Below are positions 15,447 through 22,552 of a stretch of DNA of 32,000 nt, one piece after another (the first letter of the stretch is position 1; each line of letters opens with the position of its first letter). The stretch is from Pseudodesulfovibrio mercurii (GTDB lineage Bacteria > Desulfobacterota > Desulfovibrionia > Desulfovibrionales > Desulfovibrionaceae). A program made the position numbers and the translations under genes. The stretch lies in the NCBI RefSeq assembly GCF_000189295.2, contig NC_016803.1:3570001-3602000 (forward strand), written 5' to 3'. The notes under the pieces are model-generated. The model made no database searches, was not told the origin of the DNA, and was given only the letters and a program-made list of their open reading frames with translations.

Positions 15447-15466
<20 letters not shown>
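14894..15466 (-). CDS. trpG: Anthranilate synthase component II (glutamine amidotransferase)
   Basis: MFLLIDNFDSFTFNLVQ, PGPS, GVCLGHQ (catalytic Cys), FHPES (His/Glu). Confidence 0.95.
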
Positions 15467-16913
<1,447 letters not shown>

Positions 16914-17078
16914 TGTCTATCCTTCACAACCGTTGTCGGCGAGGCGGGAGCCCCGCGCGCAATGGTCGTCGTTGAAGCTGTTATCCTTAATGATATGGCC
17001 TGGGTATGACCTGCCATCCCTTGATCTTCTTGCGATTTTCCGATTTCTTTCACGTACCGTTCATCACTGTTCTCCTTG

Positions 17079-17116
17079 AAAAAACGAAGCCGCATCCCGG
17101 ATCGGGGTGCGGCTTC
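17079..17116 (-). terminator. Intrinsic terminator (candidate Trp attenuator) between tyrA and trpE
   Basis: Minus strand: GAAGCCGCACCCC-GAUCC-GGGAUGCGGCUUC (12 of 13 pairs), then G + UUUUUU. Sits 44 nt after the tyrA stop and 166 nt before the trpE ATG. Confidence 0.75.
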
Positions 17117-17148
17117 GGTTACGGTTGTAATCGTGTGCCCGGCGAAAC

Positions 17149-17158
17149 GCCGCACCCC
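17149..17158 (-). promoter_or_regulatory. Candidate antiterminator segment GGGGUGCGGC, 1 nt after the tyrA stop codon
   Basis: Perfect 10-nt complement of GCCGCACCCC (17104-17113), which is part of the 5' arm of the terminator. The two pairings are mutually exclusive. Confidence 0.6.
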
Positions 17159-17159
17159 A

Positions 17160-17930
17160 TTAATAAGACTTTTCGTTACGCCACCACCACTGGGCCCGGT
17201 CGGCCAGCAGGTCGAGATCGCCGCCGGCGGCCAGGCTGAGATAGGACATGAACTTGCGGCTGACTTCCTGAAGGAAGGGATTGGCCTCGGAGATTATCTC
17301 GAACAGCTCCGTGTCCTGGGTGAGCATCTTGGCCGCCGCGTCGAGCCTGCGGCGGAAGGACGGGGTGACGAAATTCCCGATGCCCTCCACGTCGCGGGCC
17401 GCCGCCAGGAAGGCCACGGTGGAGGTGTAGTTCAGACCCTGGATGTAGGCCATGGCACGGTCGTGCGCCTCGGGGGTGGAGGCGAAGCATTCGTAGCCGC
17501 AGCGGGTGAACAGGTCGGCCACCCGGTCCGCCGCGTCGGCGTCCCGGTCGCGGCCGGGCATGACCGCCACGCGGGGCGTAAAGCCCTCGGGGATGACCGC
17601 GCCGAACAGGGGGTGGGTGCCGACCACCGGGCCCGAGTAGCGGGCGAGCATGGCCTTGACGGGCAGGACCTTGACCGAGCCCACGTCGCACAGGATGGTC
17701 GGTTCCTTGAGGTGGGGCGCCATGCGTTCGAGCACGGCGTTCATGGCCGTGACCGGCACGCTGAGCAGGAGCAGGTCGCACCCGGTCAGGGCCGCGCGCA
17801 CGTCCTCGTCCGAGGAGCGCCGACCCAGGCCGGTGACGGAAAGGCCGAGCCCGGCGAAGTCCGCCGAGAAGCGTCCGCCCATCTGTCCGCCCGCACCCAC
17901 GATGGTGATATGCTCGATTGCCGTTGCCAT
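17160..17930 (-). CDS. tyrA: Prephenate (or arogenate) dehydrogenase; C-terminus ...DRAQWWWRNEKSY
   Basis: N-terminal Rossmann motif ITIVGAGGQMGG and the conserved HPLFG segment. Placed between aroA and trpE. Confidence 0.88.
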   Translation of the reverse strand: MATAIEHITIVGAGGQMGGRFSADFAGLGLSVTGLGRRSSDEDVRAALTGCDLLLLSVPVTAMNAVLERMAPHLKEPTILCDVGSVKVLPVKAMLARYSGPVVGTHPLFGAVIPEGFTPRVAVMPGRDRDADAADRVADLFTRCGYECFASTPEAHDRAMAYIQGLNYTSTVAFLAAARDVEGIGNFVTPSFRRRLDAAAKMLTQDTELFEIISEANPFLQEVSRKFMSYLSLAAGGDLDLLADRAQWWWRNEKSY

Positions 17931-17948
17931 TGCCTTACCGCGTCGGGA

Positions 17949-19289
17949 TCAGCCGACGATCTTTTTCCATTCCTCGAAGAAGCCCGGGAATGATTTGCCG
18001 ACGCAGGCCGGATTGTCAAGGTTGACCTTGATTCCGGCCAGCTCGAACAGGGACATGGACATGGCCATGCGGTGGTCGTTGTAAGTGGTGAAGTTGACCT
18101 CGCTGTCGCGCGGTAGGGGAGCGGGCCGAATGATCAGCGAGTCCACGGTGGCCTCGGTTCCGCAGCCCACGCGGGCCAGCTCGTTCGCGCAGGCGGCCAG
18201 CCGGTCCGTCTCCTTGAGGCGCAGGTGGGCGACGTTGCCGATGGTCGTGGGCGTGGCGGCGAAGGCGGCCACGGCGGCCACGGTGGGCACCAGGTCCGGG
18301 CAGCGGCCCATGTTCACGTTGATGCCGCGCAGGGGGCCGGGCTCCACCAGGATGCCGTCGAAATTGACCTTGATGGACGCCCCCATCTGGCTGAGGATGT
18401 CCATGATCGCCCGGTCGCCCTGGAGGGAGTCGGCGGCCAGCCCCTTGAGGAGCACCGGCCGCGTGCCCACGGCCCCGGCGGCCAGGAAATAACTGGCGTT
18501 GGACCAGTCGCCCTCCACCTGGTAGCCGGTGTTCTCGTAGCCCATGGGCTGGACGATGAACCGGACCTTGCCCGGCTTGACGCCCTTGACCGAGCGCCAG
18601 GGCACCGCCTTCCACTCCCTGCCGTCGAGGATCTCCACGGCGAACCCGGCCTTGAAGTCCTCCATGATGCGCAGGGTCAGGGCCACGTAGGGCCAGGACA
18701 CGGCCTTCTCGCCGATGACCGAGATGGTCGTCTCGTGGTCGGCCAGGGGCGCGCCCAGGAGCAGGCCGGACAGGTACTGGCTGCTCTCTTCCAGGGTGAT
18801 CTCCACGCTTTTTTTCTTGTAGCCGTTCGCGGTCATGACGAAGGGCAGGTAGCCCTCCTGTCCCTCGAAGGCGAACTTCGCGCCAAGGGCGGCCAGGGCG
18901 GTGGTCAGCTCGGCCATGGGGCGCTCGTGCATGCGCGGCGCGCCGTGGACCCGGAAGGTGCCCTTGCCCGCGGCGGCCACGGCGGTCATCAGCCGGCAGG
19001 TGGTCCCGGACTCGTGCATGAACAGCTCGTGCGGAGTCTCGTCCTTGTGCTTGCCGTCCGCGTTGCCCCCCTTTGGCCCGTCCGACATGCCCGTGACCAC
19101 GAGCACGCCGTCCTTTTCCACGATGGACGCGCCGCAGGCGGTCAGGCAGTCGCGGGTCCGGGTGATGTCGTCGGACTCGAGGACCGAGGAGATGTTGGAC
19201 ACCCCCCCGGCCAGGGCCGCCGCGATCAGGGTGCGGTGGGACAGTGACTTGCTGGCCGGTGCGTTGACGATGATCGGATTCTTGCTCAT
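17949..19289 (-). CDS. aroA: 3-phosphoshikimate 1-carboxyvinyltransferase (EPSP synthase)
   Basis: Only the C-terminal 446 codons of the 1089-aa track ORF are EPSPS-like: PASKSLSHRTLIAAALA, ESGTTCRLM, GDWSNASYFLAAGA, LRLKETDRL, NDHRMAMS. The ATG at 19289 overlaps the pheA stop (ATGA). Confidence 0.94.
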   Translation of the reverse strand: MSKNPIIVNAPASKSLSHRTLIAAALAGGVSNISSVLESDDITRTRDCLTACGASIVEKDGVLVVTGMSDGPKGGNADGKHKDETPHELFMHESGTTCRLMTAVAAAGKGTFRVHGAPRMHERPMAELTTALAALGAKFAFEGQEGYLPFVMTANGYKKKSVEITLEESSQYLSGLLLGAPLADHETTISVIGEKAVSWPYVALTLRIMEDFKAGFAVEILDGREWKAVPWRSVKGVKPGKVRFIVQPMGYENTGYQVEGDWSNASYFLAAGAVGTRPVLLKGLAADSLQGDRAIMDILSQMGASIKVNFDGILVEPGPLRGINVNMGRCPDLVPTVAAVAAFAATPTTIGNVAHLRLKETDRLAACANELARVGCGTEATVDSLIIRPAPLPRDSEVNFTTYNDHRMAMSMSLFELAGIKVNLDNPACVGKSFPGFFEEWKKIVG

Positions 19290-22380: not shown

Positions 22381-22418
22381 AAAAAAACAAGGGCCGCCGG
22401 CTTTCGCCCGCGGCCCTT
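22381..22418 (-). terminator. Intrinsic terminator in the 5' leader of the aro-trp supraoperon (candidate attenuator)
   Basis: Minus strand: AAGGGCCGCGGGC-GAAA-GCCGGCGGCCCUU (12 of 13 pairs, GNRA loop), then G + UUUUUUU. Lies 58 nt upstream of the aroA' ATG. Confidence 0.8.
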
Positions 22419-22456
22419 GAAGAAGTTCTTTTTCGCTTGTGTGATCCACCAACAGG

Positions 22457-22552
22457 TTACACAGCACCTCTTCCAAGCCCGCGGGCATGGCTAAACCAAT
22501 ACCAAAAATAAAAGTTGGAAAAGTATGCGTTGGAAACGGTGGTGGAGTTCAT
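22457..22552 (-). CDS. Candidate 31-aa leader peptide [31 protein letters not shown] (aromatic-rich)
   Basis: Hand translation of the minus strand. ATG at 22552-22550, TAA at 22459-22457. Residues 10-20 are 9/11 aromatic (4 Phe, 3 Tyr, 2 Trp). All 4 Phe codons are TTT and 2 of 3 Tyr codons are TAT, unlike the TTC/TAC seen in flanking genes. No clear SD. Confidence 0.6.

Follow-up and report, generated by a model that had tools for sequence, protein, structure and literature searches.

A candidate tryptophan-sensing attenuator ahead of trpE that uses full-length tyrA as its leader reading frame in Pseudodesulfovibrio mercurii and related Desulfovibrionales

Leader-peptide sensors of amino acid supply have always been described as tiny dedicated open reading frames (ORFs) at the 5′ end of an operon. 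In trpL of Escherichia coli, strand 2 lies ~15 nt past the Trp codons, which are themselves ~80–110 nt from the U-run of the terminator. At rph-pyrE of E. coli the ribosome itself hinders the terminator, the signal is the UTP-dependent speed of RNA polymerase, and neither regulatory codons nor an RNA antiterminator take part. The trp genes of Bacillus subtilis sit inside an aromatic supraoperon. A TRAP mechanism has been described at the B. subtilis trp attenuator (PMC3064811), and in Chlamydia trachomatis three consecutive Trp residues (WWW) inside the long functional ORF of YtgCR act as a Trp sensor by ribosome stalling and alter downstream transcription (PMC7755916). This report concerns the tyrA-trpE junction in a 32,000-nucleotide stretch of the Pseudodesulfovibrio mercurii genome (contig NC_016803.1, positions 3,570,001–3,602,000; hereafter the window), where the end of tyrA and the spacer that follows are predicted to form a ribosome-mediated, Trp-sensing transcription attenuator with full-length tyrA as the leader ORF. 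The probability of this reading is put at roughly 0.78. The tyrA-WWW layout is most likely common to the sulfate-reducing order Desulfovibrionales, an enzyme gene appearing to have been recruited in mid-operon, order-wide.

The minus strand of the window carries a twelve-gene aromatic supraoperon, aroA′-aroB′-pheA-aroA-tyrA-trpEGDCFBA, and an identical organization has been described in Desulfovibrio vulgaris by Song et al. (PMC1173090). All features described below are on this strand unless noted. The tyrA gene (17160–17930) encodes a 256-aa prephenate dehydrogenase that is 100% identical to the P. mercurii enzyme and matches NCBIfam prephenate dehydrogenase models and Pfam PF02153. It is separated by a 246-nt spacer from trpE (15447–16913; NCBIfam anthranilate synthase component I), which is the first gene of trpEGDCFBA and the putative regulated target.

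TyrA ends in QWWWRNEKSY, and its only Trp residues are those encoded by three tandem UGG codons (17181–17189), the putative regulatory codons, with six codons between them and the UAA stop (17160–17162). The sequence GGGGUGCGGC starts one nt past the stop and is perfectly complementary to the 5′ arm of a terminator; a repeat search recovers the two arms as GGGGTGCGGC (17158–17149) and GCCGCACCCC (17113–17104), a 10-nt inverted repeat that is 100% complementary with its arms 35 nt apart. Extended by UUCG past a 2-nt bulge, GGGGUGCGGC forms the antiterminator 5′ strand (strand 2; 17143–17158). Its partner, strand 3 (17104–17117), is both the antiterminator 3′ strand and the terminator 5′ arm, and because it is shared the two folds are mutually exclusive. 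The intrinsic terminator consists of GAAGCCGCACCCC (17116–17104), the loop GATCC (17103–17099) and GGGATGCGGCTTC (17098–17086, the 3′ arm or strand 4), followed by a G and six Ts (U6 in the RNA; 17085–17079). Its stem begins 43 nt downstream of the tyrA stop and has 13 positions with one C·A mismatch, with RNA folding energies of −22.7 to −24.8 kcal/mol; a simple terminator scan of the window does not detect this hairpin (17116–17079), probably owing to the mismatch. The WWW codons, the stop, the complementary segments and the terminator had been located in a first-pass annotation made from the sequence alone, and all of those coordinates are exact on the minus strand. These Trp codons lie in no separate small ORF and the switch has no short dedicated leader ORF; the leader would be the 256 codons of tyrA. 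A restart of translation within tyrA, at the FMSYLS Met, which had been offered as another source of a leader peptide, is unneeded and nothing speaks for it.

In the predicted mechanism, RNA polymerase would transcribe the last part of tyrA, trailed by the lead ribosome. With charged tRNA-Trp plentiful, the ribosome would pass WWW and reach the stop, where its footprint of ~12 nt past the stop would cover strand 2 (17158–17149); strand 3 would then pair with strand 4, the U6 terminator would form and transcription would end at ~17079, before trpE. When Trp is scarce, the ribosome would stall with UGG in its A site and leave strand 2 free to pair with strand 3 once this is made, so that the terminator would be blocked and polymerase would continue into trpEGDCFBA. 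The tail codons RNEKSY (17163–17180) would act as a spacer keeping strand 2 clear of the WWW-stalled ribosome; among relatives the tail varies in sequence and length while the distance from WWW to strand 2 is held. In vivo the switch would thus involve ribosome stalling, transcription-translation coupling and a dependence on Trp. Control would have two tiers, with a leader ahead of aroA′ setting the whole pathway by aromatic amino acids and the tyrA switch setting the Trp branch by Trp.

Equilibrium folding with footprint constraints cannot discriminate between models, and co-transcriptional snapshots were used in its place, with the 5′ end free from just behind the WWW-stalled ribosome and the RNA 3′ end varied from 17104 to 17090. 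The minimum free energy (MFE) fold is the antiterminator every time, at −26.6 to −30.6 kcal/mol compared with about −14 kcal/mol for local hairpins, and consists of GGGGUGCGGC/GCCGCACCCC plus a UUCG/CGAA extension; the terminator becomes the MFE fold only after its 3′ arm has been fully transcribed. Taken on their own, the two helices have equal energies (antiterminator −22.6 and terminator −22.7 kcal/mol), so that the 10-bp pairing is competitive, as had been supposed. The extended antiterminator duplex has an energy of −26.9 kcal/mol (z = −4.2 relative to shuffles), and a perfect inverted repeat of at least 10 nt occurs in 3 of 1000 dinucleotide-preserving shuffles of 17060–17200.

WWW is kept in all 120 of the 120 closest TyrA homologues (58–100% identity), and the residues past it vary. 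Taking one genome per species gave a sample of 80 loci from the Desulfovibrionaceae, Desulfomicrobiaceae, Desulfohalobiaceae and Desulfonatronaceae; trpE directly follows tyrA in nearly all of them, and WWW is present in ~70 of the 78 that are readable. A total of 63 loci (the window and 62 relatives) have WWW, a U-run terminator and an upstream strand complementary to the terminator 5′ arm. In the relatives the hairpin with its U-run, found by scan in 61 and by eye in one (L003), sits 17–47 nt past the tyrA stop. Across the 63 loci the best duplex between the post-WWW sequence and the terminator arm plus loop has a mean energy of −24.4 kcal/mol, compared with −23.0 kcal/mol for the terminators, and in 59 of the 63 the antiterminator duplex is better than 95% of dinucleotide shuffles. 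Cognate strand pairs, at −24.3 kcal/mol, are more stable than non-cognate pairs, at −19.7 kcal/mol (permutation p < 1e-4, a figure inflated by kinship among the loci).

The tails of terminator-bearing loci range from 2 to 14 codons and fall into two layouts. Pseudodesulfovibrio, Humidesulfovibrio and Desulfocurvus have short tails (2–6 codons) and strand 2 starts at or just past the stop (e.g. UAA-U-GGGGUGCGGC; UAG-GGACGCGG), while Desulfomicrobium, Desulfohalobiaceae, Desulfonatronum, Nitratidesulfovibrio and Oleidesulfovibrio have long tails (8–14 codons) with strand 2 within the coding tail. The first-pass annotation had the antiterminator directly after the stop, which holds for the window and other short tails but not for the many genera in which it is inside the coding tail. 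In the long-tail layout a conserved Gly-Gly supplies strand 2 through its G-rich codons (GGGGGA, GGGGAGG), which base-pair with UCCUCCCC in the arm and loop of the terminator; the loop contributes nothing to the terminator itself. The long-tail protein tail of TyrA looks shaped by RNA constraints, judging from these sequences. The Gly-Gly is ~7–9 residues past WWW (L025, L036, L045–L050, L054, L057–L070 and L072–L080), and the terminator loops at these loci are unusually C-rich.

Both layouts have one geometry, which is constant whether the stop codon precedes or follows strand 2. From the last Trp codon to the start of strand 2 the median distance is 15 nt (13–21 nt for the core, and 22 nt in the window) despite the varying tail length; a median of 92% of strand 2 lies within −15 to +12 nt of the stop codon; and the interval from the first Trp codon through the U-run measures 97–125 nt. 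With ribosome footprints of the generally known sizes, this spacing fits the classical model, since a ribosome waiting at WWW would free strand 2 and one at the stop codon would hide it.

When 34 distinct short-tail loci are aligned with MAFFT, unsupervised, 97.4% of the antiterminator is paired, a share that falls to 38–49% when the partner columns are slid. Two antiterminator columns switch on both sides between clades (A-U in 20 and G-C in 14; C-G in 19 and U-A in 13) and a third changes in one locus. One such strand 3 column also co-varies with its strand 4 partner (G-C in 20, A-U in 11), a three-way covariation expected of a strand shared by both folds. The competition between antiterminator and terminator around WWW and the stop, as first proposed, is thus supported by the snapshots, by the 62 related loci with compensatory changes and by spacing matched to the ribosome footprint. 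The putative switch of L081 is the most independent covariation case: its TyrA is 41% identical, the genome is AT-rich, the gene order is pheA-aroA-tyrA-trpE and the motif is WWWW, and 15 nt past the Trp codons the tail AAAGGGAAGGA pairs with the terminator arm and loop UCCUUCCCUUU, which is followed by U7. A MAFFT alignment of 28 long-tail loci had the G-rich and C-rich strands out of register; its pairs were not counted, and the duplex energies, shuffles and cognate comparison were used instead.

A local hairpin, GUGCGGCGUUUCGCCGGGCAC (17135–17157; −11.4 kcal/mol), overlaps strand 2, and an equivalent is present between strands 2 and 3 in other short-tail genera, as read from the alignment; it may serve as a pause or holding structure whenever the terminator prevails. 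Such a conserved hairpin could also be a binding site for a trans-acting factor (a TRAP-like protein, an uncharged tRNA as in T-boxes, or a small RNA) that recognizes strand 2 or the interval between strands 2 and 3 and leaves no role for the ribosome, and B. subtilis does control trp within an aromatic supraoperon by a protein. This explanation is distinctly unlikely. The sequence between the strands is not conserved between clades, 17159–17104 as read from the sequence has no (G/U)AG repeat array, and half of the loci have strand 2 within the coding tail, so that translating ribosomes must traverse it. Nor does any Rfam family match, T-box and known leaders included, even at E = 10: the whole window has no match at gathering thresholds, and a search of 16850–17300 with E up to 10 returned two sub-threshold matches at chance level.

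Distant TyrA proteins (34–42% identity) end in x-W-[Y/F] (QWY, KWF, RWY and others), which makes the middle W, and aromaticity at the third position, ancestral; three Trp are the rule in the clade in which trpE follows tyrA. By this comparison WWW is predicted to be both regulatory and structural, elaborating the ancestral x-W-[Y/F] motif, and its proposed role as the Trp sensor is supported through the switch, but not as a purely regulatory one. An AlphaFold model of TyrA built on 15 aligned sequences is silent on a structural role, with low confidence in the WWW C-terminal helix (predicted local distance difference test score 44–65). Orthologues generally ending in WWW without the hairpins, or the reverse, would have told against the first-pass reading; instead most WWW loci have the hairpins, which are absent from every xWW locus. 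There are six xWW loci (L040, L052, L055, L056, L071 and L075, with K, Q, T, A or G in the first position) and none has a terminator (Fisher p = 2e-5, uncorrected for phylogeny). In two of these, L052 and L056, which are Desulfolutivibrio-like, trpE overlaps the end of tyrA; at another locus, L023, WWW is kept yet trpE also overlaps tyrA. The xWW lineages and L023 look like secondary losses of the attenuator.

In most genera there are only 20–40 nt from the U-run to the trpE start, with GGAGG ahead of the start, and no room for a promoter is seen there when the sequences are read by eye. Expression of the seven trp genes must therefore rely on read-through, an argument that the terminator is conditional. 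Some transcripts do run past the terminator, since P0018, a 334-aa EukProt transcriptome protein, is a Pseudodesulfovibrio-like TyrA with its stop read as Q and translated through the spacer past the terminator; it likely derives from bacterial contamination or a symbiont, and was perhaps, as a guess, translated with a ciliate-type genetic code. RNA-seq of D. hydrothermalis has trpE, trpG and trpD down ~6-fold between 0.1 and 10 MPa with aroA′-tyrA not significantly changed, and the whole cluster down at 26 MPa (PMC4162548); as indirect evidence, this may fit a separate control point between tyrA and trpE.

Several points weigh against a Trp-sensing attenuator. The switch has sequence evidence only, all of the statistics ignore phylogenetic relatedness, and the compensatory changes in the short-tail clade (A) stem from few independent events. 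Nine WWW loci (L014, L023, L029, L031, L035, L037, L043, L044 and L046) are without a canonical U-run terminator. Furthermore, equilibrium folding of the full-length region always yields the terminator together with local hairpins, whether or not ribosome footprints are simulated. Classical attenuators likewise fold to the terminator at equilibrium, so this result decides nothing between models, and it suits equally a plain constitutive partial terminator that fixes the ratio of aro/tyr to trp expression and has incidental complementarity upstream. Intercistronic terminators that tune stoichiometry are common, but this account is highly improbable here: the complementarity persists across 63 loci despite sequence change that includes G-C to A-U shifts, it reaches terminator loops that a terminator does not need, and its chance expectation in the window is 0.3%.

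The Trp-sensing model also depends on kinetics and on transcription-translation coupling across a 770-nt ORF, and the folds include no convincing 1:2 (anti-antiterminator) hairpin. The 1:2 pairing in the window is weak and G·U-rich, joins the WWW codons with the stop region, and is not evident in other clades; a ribosome lagging for any reason would consequently also yield read-through. Two divergent TyrA proteins (L082 and L085) have WWW with no trpE following, and this, with the ancestral middle W and aromatic third residue, means that conservation of WWW alone is no proof. The case rests on WWW combined with the switch and its geometry. The same three observations, the lack of a 1:2 guard against a lagging ribosome, the ancestry of the motif and its persistence where trpE does not follow, would favor a switch that is real and translation-dependent but reads the general distance between ribosome and polymerase, with WWW mainly structural and the distance set by overall translation rate, any amino-acid shortage or polymerase speed; rph-pyrE is an example of a full-length ORF working as a pure coupling sensor (PMC2784333). 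Such a sensor is unlikely, because the genes under control coincide exactly with the Trp branch, and because the first W is restricted to the clade and has been lost from each of the six xWW loci, none of which has a terminator. Holding the distance from WWW to the strand 2 core at 13–21 nt while the tail varies over 2–14 codons is likewise not required by pure coupling. Sensing of Trp by a ribosome at the end of tyrA remains the preferred reading.

The loci that depart from the common arrangement have some features of their own. L029, L037, L043 and L044 form a sub-clade of Desulfovibrio sp., and these together with L014, L031, L035 and L046 have GC-rich hairpins in the spacer with U tracts that are weak or absent; a decayed terminator, termination by Rho or some other mechanism could account for these eight. 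In L005 (P. pelocollis) the tyrA-trpE spacer is 743 nt, three times that of its relatives, and contains several long GC-rich hairpins and a second terminator-like element; it may reflect an inserted element. L011 is a Pseudodesulfovibrio metagenome-assembled genome labelled as a Pygsuia isolate.

The putative first-tier leader is located upstream of aroA′ (22381–22552), the first gene of the supraoperon; aroA′ encodes ADH synthase and aroB′ dehydroquinate synthase II. It contains an ORF (22552–22457) with five F, three Y and two W codons and a U-run terminator hairpin (22418–22381), and the fold of the region has z = −4.06 relative to shuffles. It is consistent with D. vulgaris, for which an attenuator preceding aroA′ has been listed (PMC1173090).

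A second small reading frame shares the tyrA-trpE spacer, and its membership in the switch is not shown. It consists of a Shine-Dalgarno (SD) sequence and a micro-ORF, M-N-G-T-UGA-KKSENRKKIKGWQVIPRPYH-UAA (16987–17077; AUG at 17064 and in-frame UGA at 17052–17050). Directly after the terminator, the window and L001–L003, L007, L008 and L010–L012 have a conserved form, M-x-x-T-UGA-KKxENRKK[IL]KGW[QE]VIPRPYH-UAA, and the variants in L004–L006 have only an SD-AUG-N6-ACR-UGA-AAG core in common with it. In nine Pseudodesulfovibrio loci the variable columns of the 20 codons downstream of the UGA divide 5/5/18 by codon position, and pairwise codon differences are 263 synonymous vs 112 non-synonymous. 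From this codon-position pattern, the frame continuous with the AUG and UGA looks coding. There is no in-frame start past the UGA and no obvious SECIS-like hairpin was seen; the UGA could be subject to read-through (perhaps by tRNA-Trp), specify selenocysteine or be decoded in another manner. A speculative and rather unlikely extension is that one transcript has three translated sensors: the F/Y/W leader; the TyrA C-terminus, with tail codons such as those of Gly-Gly selected for RNA pairing and not for protein; and the 25-codon micro-ORF of Pseudodesulfovibrio as a further Trp-dependent element, its UGA being read by tRNA-Trp. Two other ORFs of the region were deemed spurious, an 84-aa ORF at 16901–17155, in which the frame is poorly conserved (window and L007 compared by eye), and an antisense 305-aa ORF at 17076–17993.

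The predicted arrangement is one of dual coding, in which overlapping protein and regulatory codes cause the C-terminal tail of an enzyme to evolve under RNA-structure constraints. Searches for attenuators limited to 5′ leaders and short ORFs would miss such elements. It also offers a testable account of how the Trp branch could be controlled apart from the rest of the supraoperon in the Desulfovibrionales, for which P. mercurii ND132 and N. vulgaris Hildenborough are genetically tractable hosts. No description of a tyrA-WWW attenuator was found in the searchable literature; in D. vulgaris only the aroA′ attenuator is listed (PMC1173090).

Among the closest known systems is E. coli trpL, with which the tyrA element has in common the tandem Trp codons, a stop near strand 2, a 2:3 antiterminator excluding a 3:4 U-run terminator, and trpE as the target. 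It differs in that trpL is a dedicated 14-codon leader ORF whereas here it is a 256-codon enzyme gene with no clear 1:2 hairpin, and in that the tyrA element is within the operon, five genes from the promoter, and is matched by no Rfam leader model. The B. subtilis aromatic supraoperon is alike in having embedded trp genes and, shortly ahead of trpE, a second choice between terminator and antiterminator that responds to Trp specifically. The sensor there is TRAP bound to (G/U)AG repeats, whereas here there are no such repeats and the sensor would be the translating ribosome. The use of a full-length enzyme gene as a leader, which the first-pass annotation had considered unusual, is supported but has a precedent in E. 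coli rph-pyrE, where a full-length upstream gene likewise serves as the leader and read-through is decided by where its stop codon lies with respect to the attenuator (PMC2784333); the tyrA-trpE terminator would similarly be under translational control. In contrast to rph-pyrE, the tyrA switch has an RNA antiterminator and cognate codons, and a ribosome at its stop is predicted to promote termination. In YtgCR of C. trachomatis stalling appears to lower output of the downstream domain, by termination or polarity, whereas stalling at the WWW of tyrA is predicted to prevent termination and so allow transcription of the trp genes.

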